A stretch of DNA of 64,000 nucleotides from Eledone cirrhosa (taxonomy: Eukaryota). The notes under the pieces were generated by a model, which searched no databases, was not told where the DNA came from, and was given only the letters and a program-made list of their open reading frames with translations. This document shows positions 1-33,352 of this stretch, in pieces. The stretch covers positions 23,580 through 87,579 of the forward strand of contig CAXHJY010001123.1 of the NCBI GenBank assembly GCA_964016885.1, read 5' to 3'. The translations under genes and the position numbers were made by a program. The number at the start of each line of letters is the position of its first letter. Within the stretch, counting starts at the first letter, position 1.

Positions 1-286
1 GTGTGTGTATGGGTGTTATGTGTGTGGGAGTATGGTTAGCATGTTAAGATGAAGAGAATATATATATATATATATTGTGTGTGTGTGTATGTGTGTGTGT
101 AGGAAAGTGATTCCTTTAGTAGGAATATTTTTGAATGAACATATTTTCCTTACTTATTGGTGTTTGCTGTTGTATTGTCAGTGCAAACGTATGTTAAGGT
201 TTATTTAGTTCGGGTTTTTATTTTCTAAAGTAGAAGGTGTTATGTGTGTGTGTGTATGTCATATTATGGTATTGTCATAATGTATA

Positions 287-2551
287 TTAAACCATATTTA
301 ATGTTGGTTTATATTTTTGAATAAACATATTTTCCTTATTTATTCGCATTTGTTCTGTTGTATTGTTAGCGCAAAGGTAAAATGGGAAGACTTGGAATTT
401 GGGTGTCTTATTACTTGCGCAAATGTCTAGATGTGCACTTAGTGGTATCTGTCTCGTGGTTGGATCTCGTAATTGTTGGCGATGAACTGTCATTCTGTTT
501 CTGAGTGTGAGTTTAGTTTGTCCTATATAATCTTCATTGCATCCTTTACATTTAATGGCATAAAGTAGATTTTTTGATGAGCAAGTGAAGTGATTTTTTA
601 CAGTAAAATTTTGTCCTGATTTAAATGTATACGTGTTGCCTTCAATGAGGTGAGTGCAGGTTCCACAATTAGAGCGACCACATTTTTTGATACTTGGTTG
701 TGGGTTTGTGGTAGGTAATTTGGCATTGGTGAGTAATGTTTTCAGTGATTTTGGTTGTCTTTTGCTTTTGATTATTTTGTGTGTTTCAAGGGCTTTTTTC
801 ATTCTTGGGTTTTGTTTTAGTAGTGGGATGTTATTGTGAATAGTGTTGTAAGCTTCCGCATTTCTTGGGTTGTGTGTTGAGATATATGATAGAATATTGG
901 ACGTACCTTGAATTTGTTTCTGTTTCCGTAATTCATCAATGCCTATTGCTTTAGCCCTTTCTATTCCATTATTTATTAGTAATAGTGGGTACTCTCTCTC
1001 GAGTAGAATTTCCTTTAATTCTTGAAGTCTTTTATTTCGCGTTTCATAATTGGAGACAATTGTGCAAATTCTTCTTGCTAGGTTAAAAGGAATGTTCGTC
1101 TTCCTGTGCTTTGGATGGTTGGAGGTGAATAGCAGATATTGTTTGGAATCTGTTGGTTTGTAGTGTATGTCAGTTTCGATATTTGTGTCTTTTTTTAAGA
1201 TTAAGATGTCCAGAAATGGGAGTTGATCTTGGCTGTATTCCATTGTGAATTGGATGTGGTTATTGATGCCGTTTATTAAGTTTTTGAAATCCTTCAGTTG
1301 GTCGAGTGTGTGGGACCAAAGAATGAGGCAATCATCCAAGTAGCGTTTCCAATTCTCTGATAAATATTTGTGGAAGTTCAATCCGTATTTTGATTTGGAC
1401 TGTTCATATATCTGGACTTCTAAGTATGCCATGACTAAGTTGGCATAAGTTGGAGCGGCTTTTGTACCCATCGCAGTCCCCAATATTTGCTTGTAAGTAT
1501 TGCCATCGAAATCAAAAAAGTTGTTCTGTAGGATGAATTTTAATCCCTCGGTGATGAAGCTTTTTTCTATTCTGTCAGGTATCTCATTGGGATATTTCTC
1601 TAGCCAGAATCCTATTGCTTCTAGTCCGTATTGGTGTGGGATCGTTGTGTAGAGATTCACTACATCGAAAGACACAATAATGTTGTTGACATGTTTGGGG
1701 AGGTGGTTTAAGAGGTCCAGATCGTCTCTTACAAGGCTTGGTATGTGTTTCAGTATTGGTTTCAGTAGTATGTCTATAAAGTTGCTCAATCTGTGTGTTT
1801 CACATTGTGGGCCCGCTACAATTGGTCTTAATTTAAGGTCTGTGGGGTATTGTGTGTTCACGCAGGCTGAGGTGGATTGTTTACAGGCATCGTTGATTAT
1901 TTTACACTTGTGGATCTTCGGAAGTCCGTAAAGGTTGCTGGTTTTGTATTCAAAATTTGTTAAATAATCGCGTTCCTTTTTAGTTAGGTCTTCCTGGTAT
2001 CGATAAATCAGTGTATTTAATTTGGTCATAATTTTTGATTGCTGGTAGTTTTTTACTCTTTCATAGTAATTAGTATTTTGTAAGAGAGAGAACATAGAAT
2101 TTTTATATTTTTCAGCCTCCATAATGACAACAGTACTTCCCTTGTCCGCTTCCTTAATTATAATGTCCGTATTGTTTTTTAGTTCATGGATAATCTCCCA
2201 TTCCCTTCGACTCGTGTTGGGTTTGGGTTTAGGTTGCGGTAGTTCATGGTATGGGAAGGTAGCTATGTGGTCACAAAATTTGTCCAGAACTCTGTTTCTA
2301 CCTTTTGTTGGGTTGTAGCTGCTTTTATTCCGTACAATTGATTCGTCGTTATTCTCCTTGTCAAAGAATTCCTCTGTGAGACGTAATTTTCTACAGAAGT
2401 GTGAGATATCGTCATTTATCGCGTTGGGGTTAGGGTATTGTGATGTTGGTGTGAATTTCAGACCTTTGGAGAGAATTTTTACTTGTTGGGCTGAGAGGTT
2501 TGTATTTGAAATGTTAATTATTTTCGGTTTTTCAAAATCGGTTTGTGCCAC
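287..2551 (-). CDS. PLE reverse transcriptase + GIY-YIG endonuclease (ORF2 of PLE-A); the frame is open further upstream, through the slippery site at 2581-2587
   Basis: Motifs ADKG, LYGLPKIHK, LRPIV, SFDVVNLYT, GTAMG, RYLDD and PFLD; Cys linker CGRSNCGTC; LLYAIKC..C...YIGQT...R...H. The listed start is GTG and the first ATG is ~140 codons in. Confidence 0.95.
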   Translation of the reverse strand: MAQTDFEKPKIINISNTNLSAQQVKILSKGLKFTPTSQYPNPNAINDDISHFCRKLRLTEEFFDKENNDESIVRNKSSYNPTKGRNRVLDKFCDHIATFPYHELPQPKPKPNTSRREWEIIHELKNNTDIIIKEADKGSTVVIMEAEKYKNSMFSLLQNTNYYERVKNYQQSKIMTKLNTLIYRYQEDLTKKERDYLTNFEYKTSNLYGLPKIHKCKIINDACKQSTSACVNTQYPTDLKLRPIVAGPQCETHRLSNFIDILLKPILKHIPSLVRDDLDLLNHLPKHVNNIIVSFDVVNLYTTIPHQYGLEAIGFWLEKYPNEIPDRIEKSFITEGLKFILQNNFFDFDGNTYKQILGTAMGTKAAPTYANLVMAYLEVQIYEQSKSKYGLNFHKYLSENWKRYLDDCLILWSHTLDQLKDFKNLINGINNHIQFTMEYSQDQLPFLDILILKKDTNIETDIHYKPTDSKQYLLFTSNHPKHRKTNIPFNLARRICTIVSNYETRNKRLQELKEILLEREYPLLLINNGIERAKAIGIDELRKQKQIQGTSNILSYISTHNPRNAEAYNTIHNNIPLLKQNPRMKKALETHKIIKSKRQPKSLKTLLTNAKLPTTNPQPSIKKCGRSNCGTCTHLIEGNTYTFKSGQNFTVKNHFTCSSKNLLYAIKCKGCNEDYIGQTKLTLRNRMTVHRQQLRDPTTRQIPLSAHLDICASNKTPKFQVFPFYLCANNTTEQMRINKENMFIQKYKPTLNMV

Positions 2552-3720
2552 CGGGTGTCGTGAGTCCTGTAGCCTTGGTCTAAAAAATGATTTTTCTGGA
2601 ATGTTTTTTCAATGGTATTATTATATCTAATGGTATTTCCCCTGTTGTTGTGTGGTCTTGTATAGAAGTTTCGGACGTATTGAGGTTCGGTTTGTTGATA
2701 GTCCGGGTTGTAGATTTTGTTCCTTTGTGTGGGTTGGGATCTACGGTTTTGGAACAGGCTCTGTGTGGGCAGGGGTCTACGGTTTTGGAATAGGTTTTGT
2801 GTGGGTTGTGATCTGCGGATCAGGTCCTGCCTTGTGTTCGGGGATCTTTGGTTTTTGTTAGTAGGGTTATAGTTTTGTCTATGGTTTCTGGGATTATCGT
2901 TATAGTTTTGCTGGGGGTATGTTGGACGTTTTGTTACTTTTTTTGTTATTTGTTGTGCATGTGGTGTGTGAGTTTTAGTTTGTTTTAAAAATGGGTTACC
3001 TGTATGTTGTTCATTTTTGAAGTCCATTTCGTAGTTGTTGAACCAGGTGGCGTTTTTTTCCCATCGCTGGAGGGATGTTAGTTCTTCATCCTCACAGTTT
3101 TCTTTCCAAAGTTTTAGGGTTTTTTTGTAGAGTAGGCCTTCAGAGTGCTTTGAGATTTCTGTGTCCATCTGTTGGTCGAGTGACTTGAATTTTTCTTCGT
3201 TGGAGTTGGCTCTTAATCGCAACAATTCTATTTCTGTTTTAAATTTTTCCAATGCCATCTTTTCTCTAAGTCTTTGTTGGTTTTCTGGTTCATTCGGGAT
3301 GGGTTTTATTTGGAGTTTTTTGGGGAGGATGATTGGGGTAGAGTTTAGCCACTTTTCATATATGTCTGCCTTGCCATTATTTTTTAGGAGATTCCAAAGG
3401 GCGAATTTGCGGGCTGTGAGCTTTTGAGTCCATATGTTGATTAGGGTGTTTTTCACTGAGTGGACATCTCGTAGATTGGGTTCTAACGGTTGTTCCAGAT
3501 TTTGGAGCATTGCTGTTTCAATGGTTTCGAACAGCTTAGTTAATACTGGAGTAATATTCGTCTCTTGGGTATTTTCTGTTTCTTCGTGGGGTCCTTTTTT
3601 ATAGATGTGTATTTGGTCCACTTTCTTGGTCAAAATTGAGAGTTTAGAGGAAATCTCTTTGAGTTCATTTAAGATGTCCTGGTTCAGTGAGTTGTTGTTT
3701 TGTTGAGACTTTGGTGGCAT
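2518..3720 (-). CDS. ORF1 of PLE-A, 400 aa: helical/coiled-coil-like N-half and Q/N/R/P-rich C-tail with 12-aa repeats
   Basis: Long uninterrupted ATG-initiated ORF ~25 nt downstream of the pLTR end. Shares W...EE..S...W....F...Y and HFL motifs with ORF1 of PLE-B. Confidence 0.85.
   Translation of the reverse strand: MPPKSQQNNNSLNQDILNELKEISSKLSILTKKVDQIHIYKKGPHEETENTQETNITPVLTKLFETIETAMLQNLEQPLEPNLRDVHSVKNTLINIWTQKLTARKFALWNLLKNNGKADIYEKWLNSTPIILPKKLQIKPIPNEPENQQRLREKMALEKFKTEIELLRLRANSNEEKFKSLDQQMDTEISKHSEGLLYKKTLKLWKENCEDEELTSLQRWEKNATWFNNYEMDFKNEQHTGNPFLKQTKTHTPHAQQITKKVTKRPTYPQQNYNDNPRNHRQNYNPTNKNQRSPNTRQDLIRRSQPTQNLFQNRRPLPTQSLFQNRRSQPTQRNKIYNPDYQQTEPQYVRNFYTRPHNNRGNTIRYNNTIEKTFQKNHFLDQGYRTHDTRWHKPILKNRK
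2581..2587 (-). promoter_or_regulatory. Putative -1 ribosomal frameshift slippery heptamer T TTT TTA (PLE-A)
   Basis: CAT TTT TTA in the ORF1 frame; ORF2 is in the -1 frame and open from here. A GCTAC-A-GG/CC-G-GTGGC hairpin starts 7 nt downstream. Confidence 0.75.
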
Positions 3721-3745
3721 TTTCGGTCTTCGTGTGGTGGGTATA

Positions 3746-4212
3746 TATTAGAAAGTGAGGTTTATTTTACAAAATGAAAAATAACCGAGGTGTCCTACAC
3801 GAGTGAAAGTATAAAGAAAAAGAGATGAAATCGAAAATGCAACTGGAGTCTTATTTAAAAAAAAAAAAAATATATTTATTTGGTTCCTTTACCGGTTTCG
3901 CAGTTCTTCTGCTTTTCCAAAGGTGAGTTGAGATGGAGGGTCTGTGGTTTTTCTCACATCTGGTTGGTCTCTGAATGTTACTTGTTTTATATGGAAAAAG
4001 TGGCTCGAAATGCCAGGTTTTTCGAGAAGTAATTTGATTGGTTTGTCAATAATTATAATAAATTTCGCGCCAGTTCGCGTTACAATAGTTCTTCCAATAA
4101 GAGGGGGGGGGGGGGGTTGTCACAGATTGTTTTTTCATATATGAGTGTTTGAATTTCTTTTTACTTGAAAAAAGGAGGTTCACGAAGGTTTTTTTTTGGT
4201 TGTTTATAAATG
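3746..4212 (-). repeat. pLTR of PLE-A (promoter region + HHR)
   Basis: Inverted copy at 5091-5547 and solo fold-back copy at 32862-33218. Confidence 0.88.
3886..3923 (-). ncRNA. Minimal type I hammerhead ribozyme motif, U3-A8 variant (this copy also U4G)
   Basis: cctt-TGGAAAA-gcag-aagaa-ctgc-GAAA-ccgg-TA-aagg. Confidence 0.7.
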
Positions 4213-6262
<2,050 letters not shown>

Positions 6263-6319
6263 CATATATATATATATATTTCAAAGTAAGGTTTTCTAAT
6301 ATATCCCACATGGGTAAAA

Positions 6320-6611
6320 ATATAGGAAAAAGAAGTTAAAAATGTAATTGGGGACTTTAAGAAGGTTTATTTACAATTCTTTATAACTTTAGTGGTTTCG
6401 CAAGTTTTATGATTTTCAAAAGTTAAAAGAGATGGAGAGATGTGTGGTTATGCTGACTTGTAACTAGCCTGATGCGAGTGTCAAGTCAGCATAACCTCAC
6501 CTACCTCCATCTCTTTTAACTTTTGAAAATAATAAAACTTGTGAAGCTAGTAACGTTATAAAGAATTGTAGACCTTCTTAAAAACTCCAATCGTATTTTC
6601 AACTTCTTTTT

Positions 6612-6617
<6 letters not shown>
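6320..6617 (+). mobile_element. Diverged fold-back PLE 3'-end fragment with degenerate TTGAAAA-type HHR
   Basis: Inverted arms ~6320-6460 and ~6482-6617; aactt-TTGAAAA...GAAA...TA-aaagtt on the left arm. Confidence 0.55.
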
Positions 6618-6667
<50 letters not shown>

Positions 6668-6671
<4 letters not shown>

Positions 6672-6873
6672 AACCAGTAAGACCCCGACAGCTGAGCTCA
6701 AGCCGTTTCGACGGCTAATTCTGGACTCAATATTTGAGTCCAGAATTAGCCGTCGAAACGGCTTGAGCTCAGCTGTCGGGGTCTTACTGGTTCCTATTAC
6801 CCACTCTACTACCTCAAGTATTGAGTACTTTGGTGCGTTATGGTCCACCTGGTTCCTTACCACATTTCCTTCG

Positions 6874-6875
<2 letters not shown>
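6668..6875 (+). mobile_element. Near-perfect ~62-bp-arm palindrome + tail; dispersed family (also ~17875, 24150-24345, ~39945, ~57425)
   Basis: ggaacc...ctggactcaa-tat-ttgagtccag...ggttcc between (TA)n tracts; copies share tagctgtcgaaacggccggagctc. Confidence 0.65.
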
Positions 6876-6937
<62 letters not shown>

Positions 6938-6940
<3 letters not shown>

Positions 6941-7714
6941 CCGGCGTTGCTCGGGATTTGCTATAGGGTTCTTATATATTTGATATATATTTATCCTTAT
7001 CGAACCTCGTGAAATAAATACGTTTGTTTATATTTTGTTATTGTGTATGCAAAAATATCTGTCCATAAATATATAATTATATATATATATATATATTAAA
7101 ATAACAGACTAAAGTTTAAGCAAAGAATCACTGCTTTCACCCTTAACGGGATATTCTACCTAAAAGCAGTATGAAGTACATACACTAAGACTAATTGATG
7201 TAATCTTTGGCCTTGTTTGTTTATATTTTGTTTTTGTGTATGCAAAAATATCTGTACACGAATATCTATATTAAAATAACATATTAATGTTTAAGCAAAG
7301 AATCGCTGCTTTCAACCTTAACGGGATCTTCTTAAACTAAAAAAAATAATCTGGAAAACAGGAAGACGATACTTTGGTTCGTGAAGACGTTCCCTGGCAT
7401 AAGAATATATATACACACACACACACTGATCGCGTCATAATGACGTAATGCAGACAGTCAGGCATACAGAGAGATATTATGAAGGCGCGACGTCATATCT
7501 ATGTATCTATCTAAAAAGAGAAAATCTAAAGAGAAAGAGATCGCTAAATCGCCTAATGCAGTCCCTAGGGCATTGAAAATTTGAAATTTCTTTTGCTCAA
7601 AACACTTCCGGGGCCATACGAGTTACATGTATAAAGTTTGAAAAAAACCGGTTGGGTATATCTCGAGTTTTAGGGAAACAGACACACAGACATCCTTTGT
7701 TTTATATATATAGA
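6938..7714 (-). mobile_element. Non-autonomous Helitron-like element containing PLE-D pLTR pieces
   Basis: Minus-strand 5' end A|TCTATATATATAAAACAAAGGATGTCTGTGTGTC; 3' hairpin cccgg-cgttgc-tcggg at 6940-6955. The terminal CTAG is not seen. Confidence 0.5.
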
Positions 7715-7736
7715 TATTTATATATATATATATACA

Positions 7737-7878
7737 CTCCAGATACATATTTGTGCACAGGTATAGAATTTCTGGACACACTCCAGATACATGTGTACAG
7801 TTTGTGCACAGGTATAAATTTGTGCACAGGTATACAATTTCTGGACACCCTCCAGATACATATTTGTGCACAGGTATT
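7737..7878. repeat. Minisatellite, ~44-bp unit ctccagatacatatttgtgcacaggtat...
   Basis: Three imperfect units plus partial copies. Confidence 0.75.
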
Positions 7879-7964
7879 CCAATACGGCAAGGCCTAATGG
7901 ATCCCCCTTGCAGTACGTACAATCTGGACACACACACACACACCTTGGTATTATGCCAATACTA

Positions 7965-8979
<1,015 letters not shown>

Positions 8980-9240
8980 TACAATAACAGAGATAGTTTA
9001 AAGCTAATCTCTGACTGGTAACCATCTCACTCAACAAACATTAGGTTATATTTTAATATAAACCCAATTTAAGTGTTTGGGGTGCTAATAATATGTATTA
9101 TGTGAAAAAGCCAGTTGTATTATTTTATGAGATATAATTAAAGTTAAAATATATCTCTCTTTCCAAACAATTGTTTCATTATAAGTTTTCTACAATCTCG
9201 GAGAATATTTCCAGTTTATGTAGAAGCCTAAAATACATTC

Positions 9241-9291
<51 letters not shown>

Positions 9292-9461
9292 TATAGATAG
9301 GTAAATATACACGGGTGTGTATGATTGTGTATAGAAGATTATATTAATAAGAGGAATTCCAACTTTGTCTGATTTACTCGTTTTATTTACAATCCTTTAA
9401 AATATATATAATGGTATTATAATGAAATAGTATGATAGAATATTAAATTCTAAGTGTTAAT

Positions 9462-9500
9462 TGAACAAGTACTTTCATGCTTTCGCAATCTTCAGGTTCA
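9462..9500 (-). ncRNA. Minimal type I HHR (PLE-B pLTR)
   Basis: tgaac-CTGAAGA-t-tgc-gaaa-gca-t-GAAA-gtac-TT-gttca. Confidence 0.8.
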
Positions 9501-9874
9501 TGATATGTGGTGACAGTCGAGTTTGTAATTTTCAACTGTAATGAGATGGGTAAATTTCCTACCTTTTATACATTTTATACAGAGAAAAGTGGCTCCAGAA
9601 TGCAAAGCCCTGTAAACTGTATTTCGACCAATCAGTGTGTAGTTTCACTGAATTACTACAGCTGATTGGTTTAAGCGTCACGGCTGGTTGAGCATGCTAA
9701 CGACCAATAGTCATATCCAACGTATCAATTGTTTTGCTTTTTGAAATGATGAAAATAGCATTTTCTATTAATCATCACCATCAACATCACTTTTATTATT
9801 ATTATTATTGTTGTTGTTGTTGTTGTTAGTGGTCGTGGTCATAGTGGTAGTAGAAGTAATACCCCTAGGCGTTA

Positions 9875-11785
9875 TTATTGTTCATTTAGCTTGGGTTTGA
9901 ATTTATCAATAAAATTCTTTTCTTTGATTTTTCTCTTGATTTCACTTGGGCTGTGTAATTTGTAGAATGGGAATATTATAAATATTCCCTGACCACATGT
10001 TGCCAGGTGGCCGCTTAGGGGTATCTGACGGACATTTGGGTCTCTGATTTGTTGACGGTGTACCCGTGCACGTTCCGATAGTGCATTTCCAGTTTGACCG
10101 ACATATAGTTCTTCACAATTCGGGCATTTAATGCAGTAAATTAGATTTCTGCTTTTGCAGTTCATATTTGCATTTGTGAATATTTTTCCAGTTTTTGTTT
10201 TCATATATTGACCGGCGTGTATGGATTGACATGTGCCGCATCGATTATCATTGCATTTAGATACAGTGAATGATTGGTCTTTGTTGTTAAGGTCAAACTT
10301 TGCTTTTGTTAGCAATTGCTTCAAATTTTTTGGCTGTCTTTTACTAAGAGTCAAAGATCGATCTCTGATTAAGCCTTTTAATTCATTACTTTGAGCAATG
10401 ATCGGTAGGTTTGCTTTGGCAGTGTTGAATATATTCTGGTGACATGGGTTGTGTGTCATTATAAATGGTATGACCAGTTCTTGGTTTCTTCTTCCTTGGG
10501 TTGTTCTAAGTTGTTGTATAGGTATTTTTATAGCCCGCTGTATGCCATTTTCTATAAGTAGAGATGGGTATTTTTGTTTGAGCAAAAATTCTCTTAGTTC
10601 TGTTAGGCGTTTGTACCTGGTATTCGTATCTTCTACAATGGTACAAATTCTTCTGGCTAGGCAGTATGGGATGTTGCGTTTTGTATGAGGTGGATGGCAC
10701 GACTTAAAATTCAGATATTGATGGGTGTCTGTGTGTTTATAATATATATCCGTGGTAATGGTGGTGTCGTTTTTGATTATCATTATATCTAGGAATGGTA
10801 ATTTGGTCCTACTCATCTCTTTTGTGAATTGGAGAGATGGGTGTAGGTTATTCAGGAGGATATTGAACTCATCCAGAGTATCTAGAGATTCTGTCCAGAT
10901 GATGAAACAGTCGTCAAGGTATCTCTTCCAAGATTTTTCAATGTACTTTCTAAAGTCAGTACTATATTTTTCCTCTATTTCTTGGTAGAGTTGTTGTTCT
11001 AAGTATCCCATTACAGAGTTCGCGTAAACGGGAGCAAACTTCGTTCCCATCGCTGTGCCTCTAATTTGGATGTAATTCTTTCCATTGAAGAAGAAAGTGT
11101 TGTTTTCCAGAATAAGTTTAACTGCGTCTAATATAAATGGCGCTGTGAATCTAATGGGAATCACTTCTCTATGTTTTTCCACCCAGTATTTAACCGCCTT
11201 TATTCCTAAATCATGTGTAATGTTGGTGTAAAGGCTTACCACATCAAAACTGAGTAGAAGTGAATTCGTTTCCGTGGTTTTGGGAAGATGGGACAGGAAG
11301 TCGATATCATCCCGGATGAAACTGGGTGTGTGAATACATAGTGGTTTCAAAATAATGTCAGCAAAATTGCTTAGACGGTGAGTGGGACATGTTGGACCAG
11401 CTATAATAGGTCTAAGTTTTAAGTCTTTTGGGTGTAATAATTTAATGTACTCACTGTTTTGTTCTCTTACTGCCAGTTGTATTTCTTTTGACTTGTGAAC
11501 TTTCGGTAGGCCATACAGGTTGCTGGGTTTTGGCTCAAAATTGGTGATGTAGTCTCTTTCCTTATCAGTAAATGAGTTGTGGTATTTTGAAGCCAGGTTG
11601 CTGATCTTCTTCATGATGTTGTGGTCTATATTTGACGGTATTTCATGATAGAATGTTGTGTCTTTCAGTTGTTCCTCAACCAAATCCTTGTAGTATTCAG
11701 TATCTATTATAACAACTGCACCCCCTTTATCTGCTTGTTTAATAATTATTGTTTTATCATTTTGTATACGTTTAAGTGCAGACAT
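9875..11785 (-). CDS. PLE RT + GIY-YIG endonuclease (ORF2 of PLE-B, main part)
   Basis: ADKG, LYGLPKVHK, SFDVVSLYT, GTAMG, RYLDD, CNDNRCGTC, LIYCIKC..C..LYVGQT. Confidence 0.93.
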   Translation of the reverse strand: MSALKRIQNDKTIIIKQADKGGAVVIIDTEYYKDLVEEQLKDTTFYHEIPSNIDHNIMKKISNLASKYHNSFTDKERDYITNFEPKPSNLYGLPKVHKSKEIQLAVREQNSEYIKLLHPKDLKLRPIIAGPTCPTHRLSNFADIILKPLCIHTPSFIRDDIDFLSHLPKTTETNSLLLSFDVVSLYTNITHDLGIKAVKYWVEKHREVIPIRFTAPFILDAVKLILENNTFFFNGKNYIQIRGTAMGTKFAPVYANSVMGYLEQQLYQEIEEKYSTDFRKYIEKSWKRYLDDCFIIWTESLDTLDEFNILLNNLHPSLQFTKEMSRTKLPFLDIMIIKNDTTITTDIYYKHTDTHQYLNFKSCHPPHTKRNIPYCLARRICTIVEDTNTRYKRLTELREFLLKQKYPSLLIENGIQRAIKIPIQQLRTTQGRRNQELVIPFIMTHNPCHQNIFNTAKANLPIIAQSNELKGLIRDRSLTLSKRQPKNLKQLLTKAKFDLNNKDQSFTVSKCNDNRCGTCQSIHAGQYMKTKTGKIFTNANMNCKSRNLIYCIKCPNCEELYVGQTGNALSERARVHRQQIRDPNVRQIPLSGHLATCGQGIFIIFPFYKLHSPSEIKRKIKEKNFIDKFKPKLNEQ

Positions 11786-12188
11786 TTCTGATTTGTTAAT
11801 GTTTGGCCTAACATTAGTATTATGTCTAAGAGGAAATTTAGACAGGATGTCAATGTATTGGTCGAGATAGATATTTCTTCCTTTTGGCGGAGTGAAATTT
11901 GATTTATTCTTTACTAGTCATTCATCACTCTCATTATTTTTATCAGCGAAGAATTCTACAAGACGCAATTTTCGACAGAAATTCTTGGGTATCCTCCTTC
12001 AGTTCTTGGTGGTTGACTGTTGGAGTCGGTGTGAATTTCAGTGCTTTTGACAGAATTTGCATTTCATCATTGTCAAGATCTCTTTTAGATAAATTAATTA
12101 TTTTAGGATCTACGTGTACAGCTGTTTTGGGTATGTTTCCTCCTGGAGTTTTTCTTTTTCCGGTTTTTGTTGTCCTGACGTTAAAAAA
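11786..12188 (-). pseudogene. Disrupted N-terminus of PLE-B ORF2
   Basis: PKIINLSKRDLDNDEMQILSKALKFTPT lies in the -1 frame of ORF1 and aligns to PLE-A PKIINISNTNLSAQQVKILSKGLKFTPT. 1-nt insertion at ~11980 and in-frame TGA at 11918-11920. Confidence 0.85.
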
Positions 12189-12832
12189 TGGATTTTTCTC
12201 TGTTCAGGATTTATATTCCTGTTGGTGTTCGGTTGATGAACTTTTGGTCGTGATATTATATTTAGTTTCGTTATGTATTTTGTCCTATTTTTGGTATTCT
12301 GTATATTATTTTTCTTCCTGTTAGCATTATTTTTAACAATCTGGGAAAGTGACCTAGGTTTGCTTTCAGGTTTAGATCGTTTTTTCGTCCAGTTTCTTGT
12401 GGGCAATCTCCGTTGAGATCTTGAGAGTGATCTGGTTATTCTACGTTTTGTTTCCACATTCCTTGTTGGTAGTCTCTGTTGAGATCTTGAGAATGATCTC
12501 CTGGTTTTACTACTTCTCATGGTCTGGTCAAAGGAATACCTATCGTGTTTGTGCTTTTTGTTCATGTTGTGTGCGATAGGGTGTTTTTGTAGAAAAAGCG
12601 AAGAGTTATTACCGTAGTTCTTCTTTGATTCAAGGTAAGGTGAGTGTTTGTGTTGGCACGTGTTCTGGCGTATGTTGTGTTGATGAGATTGTCCACTTTT
12701 AATGCTTTTTCTCAGGGTTCCAGAGTCTTTACCGTAATTTGCAGCATATTCATCGAGAAATAATTGTTTCTGCTGCCATATCTTTCTTGATTTGTTTTCT
12801 TCTTTTGAGATATCTCCGATCCAAAAGAAATA
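12110..12832 (-). pseudogene. 5'-truncated ORF1 of PLE-B (basic, RS-rich C-tail)
   Basis: FWIGDISKEENKSRKIWQQKQLFLDEY aligns to PLE-A LWKENCEDEELTSLQRWEKNATWFNNY; KIHFL vs KNHFL near the end. Confidence 0.78.
12182..12188 (-). promoter_or_regulatory. Putative -1 frameshift heptamer T TTT TTA (PLE-B)
   Basis: CAT TTT TTA in the ORF1 frame; the -1 frame opens ~15 nt upstream and runs into the conserved RT N-terminus. Confidence 0.75.
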
Positions 12833-14449
12833 CAAAAGAAATACAACTGGCAGTAAGAGAACAAAACAGTGAGTACATTAAATTATTACACCCAAAAGAC
12901 TTAAAACTTAGACCTATTATAGCTGGTCCAACATGCCCCACTCACCGTCTAAGCAATTTTGTTGACATTATTTTGAAACCACTATGTATTCACACACCCA
13001 GTTTCATCCGGGATGATATCGAATTCCTGTCCCATCTTCCCAAAACCACGGAAACGAATTCACTTCTACTCAGTTTTGATGTGGTAAGCCTTTACACCAA
13101 CATTACACATGATTTAGGAATAAAGGCGGTTAAATACTGGGTGGAAAAACATAGAGAAGTGATTCCCATTAGATTCACAGCGCCATTTATATTAGACGCA
13201 GTTAAACTTATTCTGGAAAACAACACTTTCTTCTTCAATGGAAAGAATTACATCCAAATTAGAGGCACAGCGATGGGAACGAAGTTTGCTCCCGTTTACG
13301 CGAACTCTGTAATGGGATACTTAGAACAACAACTCTACCAAGAAATAGAGGAAAAATATAGTACTGACTTTAGAAAGTACATTGAAAAATCTTGGAAGAG
13401 ATACCTTGACGACTGTTTCATCATCTGGACAGAAGCTCTAGATACTCTAGATAAGTTCAATATCCTCCTGAATAACCTACACCCATCTCTCCAATTCACA
13501 AAAGAGATGAGTAGGACCAAATTACCATTCCTAGATATAATGATAATCAAAAACGACACCACCATTACCACGGATATATATTATAAACACACAGACACCC
13601 ATCAATATCTGAATTTTAAGTCGTGCCATCCACCTCATACAAAACGCAACATCCCATACTGCCTAGCCAGAAGAATTTGTACCATTGTAGAAGATACGAA
13701 TACCAGGTACAAACGCCTAACAGAACTAAGAGAATTTTTGCTGAAAACAAAAATACCCATCTCTACTTATAGAAAATGGCATACAGCGGGCTATAAAAAT
13801 ACCTATACAACAACTTAGAACAACCCAAGGAAGAAGAAACCAAGAACTGGTCATACCATTTATAATGACACACAACCCATGTCACCAGAATATATTCAAC
13901 ACTGCCAAAGCAAACCTACCGATCATTGCTCAAAGTAATGAATTAAAAGGCTTAATCACAGATCGATCTTTGACTCTTAGTAAAAGACAGCCAAAAAATT
14001 TGAAGCAATTGCTAACAAAAGCAAAGTTTGACCTTAATAAGAAAGACCAATCATTCACTGTATCTAAATGCAATGATAATCGATGCGGCACATGTCAATC
14101 CATACACGCCGGTCAATATATGAAAACAAAAACTGGAAAAATATTCCCAAATGCAAATATGAACTGCAAAAGCAGAAATCTAATTTACTGCATTAAATGC
14201 CCGAATTGTGAAGAACTATATGTCGGTCAAACTGGAAATGCACTATCGGAACGTGCACGGGTACACCGTCAACAAATCAGAGACCCAAATGTCCGTCAGA
14301 TACCCCTAAGCGGCCACCTGGCAACATGTGGTCAGGGAATATTTATAATATTCCTATTCTACAAATTACACAGCCCAAGTGAAATCAAGAGAAAAATCAA
14401 AGAAAAGAATTTTATTGATAAATTCAAACCCAAGCTAAATGAACAATAA
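12833..14449 (+). pseudogene. Inverted, 5'-truncated copy of PLE-B RT/EN with a frameshift at ~13745
   Basis: ORFs 12739-13818 and 13865-14449 are nearly identical to 9875-11785; extra A in ctgaaaacaaaaa. Confidence 0.92.
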
Positions 14450-14831
14450 TAACGCCTAAGGTATTACTTCTACTACCACTATGACCACGACCACTAACAA
14501 CAACAACAACAACAACAACAACAATAATAATAATAATAAAAGTGATGTTGATGGTGATGATTAATAGAAAATGGTATTTTCATCATTTAAAAAAGCAAAA
14601 CAATTGATACGTTGGATATGACTATTGGTCGTTAGCACGCTCAACCAGCCGTGACGCTTAAACCAATCAGCTGTAGTAATTCAGTGAAACTACACACTGA
14701 TTGGTCGAAATACAGTTTACAGGGCTTTGCATTCTGGAGCCACTTTTCTCTGTATAAAATGTATAAAAGGTAGGAAATTTACCCATCTCATTACAGTTGA
14801 AAATTGCAAACTCGACTGTCACCACATATCA

Positions 14832-14870
14832 TGAACCTGAAGATTGCGAAAGCATGAAAGTACTTGTTCA
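14832..14870 (+). ncRNA. Minimal type I HHR (PLE-B pLTR, right arm)
   Basis: tgaac-CTGAAGA-ttgcgaaagcat-GAAA-gtac-TT-gttca. Confidence 0.8.
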
Positions 14871-14984
14871 ATTAACACTTAGAATTTAATATTCTATCAT
14901 ACTATTTCATTATAATACCATTATATATATTTTAAAGGATTGTAAATAAAACGAGTAAATCAGACAAAGTTGGAATTCCTCTTA

Positions 14985-15078
<94 letters not shown>

Positions 15079-15751
15079 TATATATATATATATATATGTA
15101 TACTGTATTTGGCTAAATCATAATTTATTATGTCTTTCTATCTCATTTCTAGAGAAAATAAAATACACATTACAACTCTTGTCACTCACCGAGTCCTCTC
15201 AACAACTTTGGATCTTTTACACGCACACATATACGCACACACTCACATATACAAACACATATATACACATACATACACATACATATATACTCACACATAT
15301 TTACACACATATATATATATAAACGGGAAAAGACATGTACATATAATTATATTATTGCAGTTTAATCTGATTTTCGCTTTCGCTATTTCCGTATTATTTC
15401 ATTTATTCTTGTTTTGATTAAAGTATTTGCAAAAACATATTTACTCCAATCTTTACATATTTATAAACATTTATTCTTTAAGAGTATCTACATTTTAAAT
15501 ATGTTTCTATTCTCAAAACATTGAAATTTTCTATATTTTCGTTACATTTATATTTAAGTTATACATGTATATTTTTTACTGCATTTGGTTATGATATTGT
15601 AATTTATTTTATTTATTTATTTTATTATATGTATATCTATACTATATTTATTCATACTAAATAATTACGATTTATTCTATTTGGTTTGTTTTAACATGTT
15701 AATTGGTTCAGTTCTTGCGTTTGTGTTTGTATTATGTTAACATAGAGTAGA

Positions 15752-15970
15752 GGGCGGTGGATTGGCAGTATCAGTAGAGGCTCGGACACCATTCTTTGCA
15801 GCATAGAGTTACGGCCCTTTATGATCTGAGTTCAAATCCCGCCGATATTAACTTTGCCTTTCATCCTTACGGGGTCGATAAAATAAAGCACCAGTAACGT
15901 ACTGAGGTCGATTAAATCGAGTTTCTGCTCCCCCACAATTGCTGACCATGTGCCTATATAAGAAACCATT
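15752..15970 (+). mobile_element. tRNA-derived SINE with Nin/Deu-like core
   Basis: A/B boxes (tggcag...gg, gttcaaatcc); core gcctttcatccttacggggtcgataaa; TSD-like ttatgttaacatagag on both sides. Confidence 0.88.
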
Positions 15971-16143
15971 ATGTTAACATAGAGGTCCTGTTTCAAATTG
16001 ATGTCTTATCCAGCCAGCCTGGGAAATATTGATGAAAGGGCATCTGCACCATCTTTCAAGGATAACTTCCTCTCAGTCCATCTACTAGTTCTGCTTGAAA
16101 TAGCACCCGAGTTTCATCCTTAATTACATTATCGTATCTTAAA

Positions 16144-32700: not shown

Positions 32701-33218
<518 letters not shown>

Positions 33219-33352
33219 ATATATATATATATATATATAAATAACTGTTTCTATTTTAGGCACAAGGCCAGCAATTACCCAGTGCATTACTGGTACTTTA
33301 TATATATAAATAACAACGCCATATATATATATATATATGGTGTGTTGTTATT

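Follow-up and report, generated by a model that had tools for sequence, protein, structure and literature searches.

Overlapping reading frames in two Penelope-like elements

The stretch analyzed here, referred to as the window, comprises 64,000 nucleotides (nt) of the Eledone cirrhosa genome (contig CAXHJY010001123.1, positions 23,580 to 87,579). Two Penelope-like elements (PLEs), PLE-A and PLE-B, lie on its minus strand (Table 1). Each carries a first open reading frame (ORF1), which is overlapped near its end by a second frame (ORF2) matching a reverse transcriptase (RT) as well as an endonuclease (EN) of the GIY-YIG type. The RTs of the two elements are ~48% identical and their ORF1s are homologous at 31% identity, so A and B do not represent independent origins. 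We searched the 3.0 Gb genome (1,796 contigs) for copies of both. Families A and B are young and high-copy: the genome yielded 1,651 (A) and 655 (B) candidates, and the 40 matches that were scored are 99% identical. DNA depth drops about thirtyfold from the element 3' end to ORF1, matching the expectation for 5' truncation, and PLE-B is itself 5'-truncated near 12833, where it is joined to an inverted partial copy.

At the junction of the two frames, ORF1 reads CAT TTT TTA (H-F-L) through a minus-strand TTTTTTA run, located at 2587-2581 in A and at 12188-12182 in B, and the RT frame lies at -1. An X XXY YYZ heptamer in phase with a downstream ORF at -1 is the arrangement of the signal used by HIV-1 (human immunodeficiency virus type 1). 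The -1 frame is closed by a TGA that ends 21 nt (A) or 15 nt (B) before the heptamer, and neither element has an AUG between the putative slip site and the RT N-terminal motif PKIIN[IL]S. The first in-frame AUG after the site occurs 153 codons on in A (window position 2122) and 40 codons on in B (12062), the latter inside the conserved RT N-terminal block. A slip at the run would yield a fusion of 1,144 amino acids (aa) from the window copy of A, 1,146 aa from family A and 1,194 aa from family B, with the predicted trans-frame sequence ...KNHF[L/F]RPRLQDSR... in A. By chance, a T6-purine run stands in one fixed phase in 18 of 1,128 100-nt windows of the loci studied (1.6%, the sites themselves counted). 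The junction is real and not a lesion.

These results agree in most respects with a preliminary description of this DNA, which had given the heptamers with their coordinates and H-F-L reading, the stops shortly upstream, the missing AUG before PKIIN[IL]S and a fusion of about 1,150 aa. The later lesions that it reported in PLE-B are present and could be placed, one being a surplus base at 11981 and the other a point change at 11919 that creates a stop. Its estimate of ~140 codons to the first Met of A was too low, and it made no mention of the in-frame AUG in B.

The putative slip site is conserved in the genome and across an RT clade

The preliminary description had also called the site conserved, having seen it in the two elements. 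The junction is kept in 30 of the 30 best-scoring copies of A and in 30 of 30 of B, a biased sample since these copies were chosen by likeness to the junction. Among copies picked for an intact ORF1, the whole -1 frame is also open (762-768 codons) in six of seven for A and five of five for B. For an unbiased sample we used the RT motif alone as query, which gave 1,617 matches, and took the first 30 loci; these fell into at least six families. The T6A run was in phase in 18 of the 30, displaced by a later indel in six, damaged in four and truncated inside the site in two. Every one of families A to E contributed in-phase copies, and the sixth was represented by a single decayed, out-of-phase copy. 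Five families of this genome were thus found to have the site without the site serving as query. A further pattern, GLK[FY]CP, had no match in this genome. Small deletions join ORF1 and ORF2 in one frame in three single copies (L066, L121 and L141), which look like post-insertion lesions rather than families.

Metagenome contigs scanned with the RT motifs provided 75 more loci. In an RT tree (FastTree; 68 rows, left after the removal of 12 of 80 for shortness), one clade with a support of 100 united 27 of the 75 with the five local families. The N-terminal motif was readable in 19 of these 27, and 16, a count that includes near-copies, have T6A or T6G in phase. The three exceptions are a locus with an N at the site (L098), a T5 copy of a T6 family (L141) and a locus without upstream DNA (L113). 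Among the other eight clade members, three (L096, L099 and L115) proved on reading by hand to have T6A in phase. Outside the clade stand 48 loci, 34 of them readable, and the site occurs in two: L140, which was too short for the tree and has the same ORF1 as the clade, and L130. In most of those without the site an in-frame Met lies upstream; L112, with one ORF of 1,053 aa, is among them. Heptamer and phase are conserved over the whole RT clade, which backs the main inference of the preliminary description, an EN-bearing PLE lineage with gag-pol-like expression. Synonymous sites between families are near saturation (proportion of synonymous differences, pS, 0.68-0.81), with ORF1 cores 27-62% and ORF2s 49-71% identical.

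The relatives outside the clade are varied. L130 (569-4277) is an EN-less element whose 563-aa ORF1 has an esterase-like C-terminal part (a weak match to Pfam NXPE4_C, E 0.048). At the end of this ORF1 stands T TTT TTA, which is in phase with an RT frame without GIY-YIG; (CCCTAA)n telomeric repeats come after that frame. The ORF1 profile described below detected no homology to the L130 ORF1 or to the L112 N-terminus, so the same slip site serves an unrelated ORF1. In L118, L120, L131, L134 and L139, other upstream ORFs overlap the RT ORF at -1 without a T6 site; in L118 the first AUG of the RT frame lies against the stop of the upstream ORF, and further on there is a distinct ORF of 644 aa with a GIY-YIG match. 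Two-ORF layouts may be common among relatives outside the clade.

ORF1 belongs to a large protein family that retains the site

A profile of 12 ORF1s found 1,140 homologue clusters (50% identity) at E<=0.001. The longest of the best 150 matches has 706 aa, so none of these is long enough for an in-frame fusion. From 158 ORF1 proteins, one per 50%-identity cluster, we kept the 86 of 330-560 aa as full-length and dropped 72 that were shorter or longer. The dipeptide FL, which the slip site encodes, occurs within the last 45 aa in 75 of the 86 (70 of 81 without the query proteins); the two segments before that one have it in 3 and 5 of the 86. Even without their tails, all 86 reach a score of 98 bits or more. 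Ahead of FL there is never K, E, Q, M or W, whose codons are unable to end in U (0 of 75, against a background of 19%), and 53 of the 75 have G, E or D right after it. The absence of these five residues is the signature that U UUU UUR would be predicted to leave at the protein level.

The AlphaFold model of ORF1 has a confident helical core at ~aa 90-245 (predicted local distance difference test, pLDDT, >90). The N-terminus forms a helix whose heptad pattern is clean, and the tail is disordered. No Pfam family matched ORF1. Searches for a capsid fold or a CCHC knuckle returned generic helical bundles only, with a best Foldseek E of 0.22 and a best VIA Z of 8.5, and in the Atlas features Gag-like clusters lie near ORF1 at 0.83, which is a lead and nothing further. 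By analogy with the ORF1 proteins of long interspersed nuclear elements (LINEs), ORF1 is probably a helical RNA-packaging protein. Past the slip site, the tail motif D-T-R-W (window 2560-2548, minus strand) is kept in A, E, P0001 and P0003, and the codons for it differ between A and E at third positions. This pattern suggests that the unshifted end of ORF1 is translated and under selection.

Candidate stimulators of the proposed slip

The preliminary description had pointed to a hairpin 7 nt past the site in A. It is the minimum-energy fold there, at -7.8 kcal/mol, and in that sense exists; as a stimulator it finds no support, with 69 of 200 shuffles folding as well (z -0.3) and no conservation. 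In a search of local folds across 19 families, which did not extend to pseudoknots and long-range pairing, a conserved 3' structure was not found: the mean z was -0.3 to -0.6, and just 2 or 3 families fell below -2. Families C and D have almost no fold after the site, L143 is folded (z -4), and L091, L109 and L123 are so more weakly. A local RNA fold is unlikely to be the stimulator.

What does recur is the spacing between FL and the stop of ORF1. It is exactly 10 residues in 24 of the 75 proteins, shorter in 2 and longer in 49; a null of 3-6% stops per codon, which ignores shared ancestry, predicts ~2 at 10 and 20-36 shorter. These 10-residue tails are ~10% identical, their N-domains 29% on average. 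A contig-end artefact was ruled out as the source of the peak by DNA, in which the stop at the 10-codon position is real in 8 of 19 families, with a distance to KGLKF that varies from 95 to 131 nt. A need for aliphatic residues in the -1 frame is disfavored as the reason for a codon-11 stop: it predicts many S, F or L at that position, and only 2 of 75 have them, as against 24 stops, 2 W and 3 Y, the lineages being related. In the window families the stop falls at 20 codons (A) and 23 codons (B), and codons close to the RT motif provide it. The eleventh codon after the site is TGG in A (window 2550-2548, minus strand), in E (L078) and in L109, where sister families have TAA or TAG; speculatively, a single A-to-G change from TAG would yield this TGG.

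The minimal gap between collided ribosomes in yeast is ten intervening codons, and disomes accumulate at stop codons in human cells (bioRxiv 10.1101/2023.02.01.526718). In the coronavirus SARS-CoV-2, the position of the zero-frame stop tunes -1 frameshifting (Bhatt et al., 2021; PMC8168617). One could therefore imagine, as a model that we consider rather unlikely, that a ribosome terminating at a stop 10 codons on blocks the next ribosome on U UUU UUA and forces it to slip without an RNA fold, the outcome being tuned by ribosome load; A and B, with 20 and 23 codons, would be derived or two-ribosome versions. The trait is clustered, however: a single clade contains 21 of the 25 rows, and the tree has 9 changes, so that the 10-codon stop may be one old retained state. 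Two families known from DNA have tails of 2 and 4. The coronavirus offers no direct parallel: its stop lies 5 codons downstream, within the pseudoknot, and is proposed to let the pseudoknot refold (PMC8168617), whereas the PLE clade mostly has at least 10 codons to the stop and no conserved fold. Any effect of the stop would thus need a mechanism other than that of SARS-CoV-2.

Probable programmed frameshifting and its alternatives

Given the two overlapping frames, the in-phase heptamer, the lack of a shared ORF2 start codon and the conservation of the site across the RT clade, we consider it very probable that programmed -1 frameshifting at U UUU UU(A/G) joins a separate ORF1 to the RT-endonuclease in these Neptune-type elements (classified below). 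Most ribosomes would complete ORF1 (400 aa in A), and a small share would slip back one base to make an ORF1-RT-endonuclease enzyme of 1,144-1,194 aa, giving a gag/gag-pol-like ratio of ORF1 to enzyme. The slip would rest on the slippery run itself, and, more speculatively, the position of the ORF1 stop would help in part of the clade. Several observations weigh against this explanation. The families share ancestry, which makes the site counts non-independent events, and no conserved local fold was found downstream of the site in the 19 families. A splice-acceptor-like TTTTTTAG is read in 13 of these 19, family B has its in-frame AUG 40 codons downstream, and UUG is the last slip codon in 4 of the 19. 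UUG is a less usual last codon of slip heptamers.

If TTTTTTAG were instead a conserved splice acceptor, an upstream donor would supply an AUG in the ORF2 frame and unspliced RNA would give ORF1. That the run ends in AG in those 13 families is in keeping with this, as are the known occurrence of introns in PLEs and the presence in B of a CAG that lies 7 nt downstream and shares its phase with the AG of A. Yet the AG is missing in the other six families (four have TTTTTTG, one TTTTTTAA and one TTTTTTAT), and in at least 14 of the 75 proteins FL is followed by an amino acid (Y, P, L, W, N, F, H or Q) that excludes an AG there. Nor does an acceptor require six T, a fixed ORF1 phase or a fixed -1 frame relation. 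One contig is collinear across the site, a weak point in the same direction; a splice at 2596 hinted at by one contig was actually a diverged stretch of equal length. We judge the splicing explanation to be improbable. ORF2 might also be made alone, as has been put forward for LINE ORF2; ribosomes would re-initiate past the ORF1 stop or start at an internal AUG, and FL would be a mere protein motif. Unusual initiation has been discussed for LINE ORF2 (PMC5009743), and the AUG of B, 40 codons past the site and 16 past the ORF1 stop, would suit it. Starting at the first AUG of A (codon 153), however, would remove PKIIN, KGLKF and KEADKG; the Met of B is absent from the other four aligned families; and a protein motif leaves the U before FL and the invariable TTT TTR codons unexplained, making independent initiation a very improbable source of ORF2.

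The frames could also be fused without any ribosomal shift if RNA polymerase slipped on T6 and added one U in a share of transcripts. This needs no downstream fold, which fits the result for the 19 families, and the run is a homopolymer. Six bases, though, are short for polymerase slippage, and the fixed phase of the run and the floor on the stop distance would go unexplained, so that we give slippage during transcription very little credence. There remains the notion that the two frames are a single gene, split by an indel in the homopolymer that the copies share or by faulty assembly. A few copies do have frames joined by deletion (L066, and the T5 copies L121 and L141), but full-length copies selected as such keep both frames open with the same -1 junction (six of seven for A, five of five for B), and the junction is held across families despite near-saturated synonymous sites. 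A broken gene is next to impossible and is refuted for practical purposes.

Classification and relation to known systems

Both elements are, as judged from their sequences, Neptune-type, EN-bearing PLEs. Pfam finds RVT_1 (E 6e-6, below the curated cut-off) and GIY-YIG (E 2e-5) in both. The GIY-YIG domain is C-terminal, behind the RT, with cysteines between GIY and YIG and two histidines downstream (CCHH), and both elements have pseudo-long terminal repeats (pLTRs), a tandem or inverted arrangement and hammerhead-like motifs in the terminal repeats. The hammerhead core variant U3-A8 is already in print for PLEs, and no Rfam hammerhead or frameshift family scored in window 1-16000. The long CX2-5CxxC RT-EN linker fits the Neptune rows and not the Nematis rows of Figure S2 of Craig et al. 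(2021; PMC8557442) in a by-eye comparison of window 299..682 (minus strand) with the figure text, and the Neptune-type label follows from its likeness to Neptune1_Nv, the tree of RTs holding unnamed loci only. No solved PLE RT structure was found by sequence, nor any relative among viral contigs.

With the Neptune group as presented by Craig et al. (2021; PMC8557442), A and B share the order of RT and GIY-YIG, the linker, hammerhead pLTRs, tandem or inverted arrangement and (TA)n insertion. Canonical EN-bearing elements are described there as single-ORF; in contrast, A and B have a separate helical ORF1 of 400-450 aa and the T6A/G junction. Intact copies of both have two overlapping frames, and we therefore file them as a variant rather than as canonical members. 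The preliminary description had relied on the single-ORF definition, which the abstract of Craig et al. (2021) supports, and had overstated the novelty: according to the Figure 1 legend, a frameshift accompanied by a pseudoknot can set ORF1 apart, and Neptune-like elements with additional ORFs have been published. The legend text names no clade; the frameshift is probably that of Athena/Terminon. In the supplement, ORF1 and frameshift are mentioned for Chlamys families only.

The Athena/Terminon elements of bdelloid rotifers (PMC6431247, PMC5408684) likewise have two ORFs and coiled-coil ORFs. The preliminary description referred to T6A frameshifts as reported for the EN-less Athena elements. 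Unlike A and B, whose GIY-YIG is fused to the RT and whose copies occur at many internal positions on many chromosomes, they have no fused endonuclease and are telomeric. Esterase-bearing Neptune-like elements (PMC5408684, PMC3905857) and a two-ORF killifish Neptune with non-overlapping ORFs (PMC12602865) resemble A and B in being EN-bearing with coding sequence upstream of the RT; no frameshift appears in the portions of these texts that were searched, and the ORF1 of A and B is without an esterase. The HIV-1 site is U UUU UUA followed by GGG (PMC4373837), and the PLEs share its heptamer and phase, the preference for G next and the order of a structural-type ORF followed by an enzyme ORF. They differ in that HIV-1 has a defined stem-loop and the A and B families have none conserved, in an ORF1 without a capsid fold or zinc knuckle in our searches, and in not being a virus. 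We found no description of a U6A site in an EN-bearing clade in the literature searched, which included few subscription papers and not Repbase, and Penelope is not mentioned in the portion searched of a 2016 review of frameshifting. Recoding of this type is textbook knowledge, and for this class of element the idea has its precursors; an EN-bearing clade with its own helical ORF1 family and an apparent lack of an RNA stimulator is what we did not find in print.

Other features of the window

Table 1. Features of PLE-A and PLE-B in the window.
Feature	Position	Strand	Remarks
PLE-A ORF1	2518..3720	-	400 aa; heptad helix at the N-terminus (aa 11-42), then a helical core that is conserved (~aa 85-245) and a disordered tail rich in R/N/Q; stop 20 codons past slip site
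PLE-A slippery heptamer T TTT TTA	2581..2587	-	In ORF1 phase
PLE-A weak hairpin	2547..2573	-	7 nt past slip site; neither significant nor conserved
PLE-A ORF2	287..2608	-	Open -1 frame, 773 codons, RT and GIY-YIG matches
PLE-A ORF2 motifs	PKIINIS 2527-2507; KGLKF 2467-2453; RT core RYLDD 1345-1331; first AUG 2122	-	
PLE-A RT-EN linker CGRSNCGTC	682-656	-	CX4CxxC, then ~25 aa, then HFTC
PLE-A pLTR, 404 nt	3810..4213	-	96% direct repeat of the PLE-A 3' end, itself ~0.9-1.3 kb left of the window start (adjoining stretch L204 compared)
Predicted minimal hammerhead ribozyme, PLE-A pLTR	3886..3923	-	U3-A8 variant of the core, with a single core change in the window copy; the form typical of the family lies at 5369-5406 (+)
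Inverted copy of PLE-A 3' untranslated region (UTR) and pLTR	4213..5550	+	Ends in (TA)n
PLE-B ORF1 remnant	12110..12833	-	5'-truncated; ends 23 codons past slip site; other copies have a full ORF1 of 449 aa
PLE-B slippery heptamer T TTT TTA	12182..12188	-	In ORF1 phase
PLE-B ORF2 (RT, linker, GIY-YIG)	9875..12203	-	Broken at 11981 and 11919 in window copy; in-frame AUG 12062
Predicted minimal hammerhead, PLE-B 3' repeat	9463..9499	-	Second copy 14833-14869 (+)
Inverted, further truncated PLE-B copy	12833..14992	+	98.7% identity to 11490-9340

Part of the PLE-A pLTR region (window 3742-4006) has ~10 times the DNA depth of the ORF2 3' end, which suggests that solo or non-autonomous pLTR copies are numerous. 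The 3' UTR of family A is long, at ~1.6 kb; within it a segment of ~330 nt is duplicated at 84% identity, and there are CA/TA microsatellites (window 4503-5161 and L204). Another inverted pair, with two hammerhead motifs, lies at window 32853-33243. Three long near-perfect palindromes stand between (TA)n tracts at window 5958-6089, 6416-6526 and 6672-6792; Rfam microRNA matches to them are below threshold, and they are probably fold-back remnants of other repeats.

Implications

If a slip site does link the enzyme to a further, probably abundant protein, a large clade, with more than 1,100 ORF1 clusters, is misannotated, and its intact copies are being scored as broken. The transposition cycle of EN-bearing PLEs is poorly understood, and, were the frameshift confirmed, a reconstituted transposition system would need two products in a set ratio. 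The 10-codon spacing of the stop bears on whether a terminating ribosome can replace an RNA fold as the trigger of a -1 shift.

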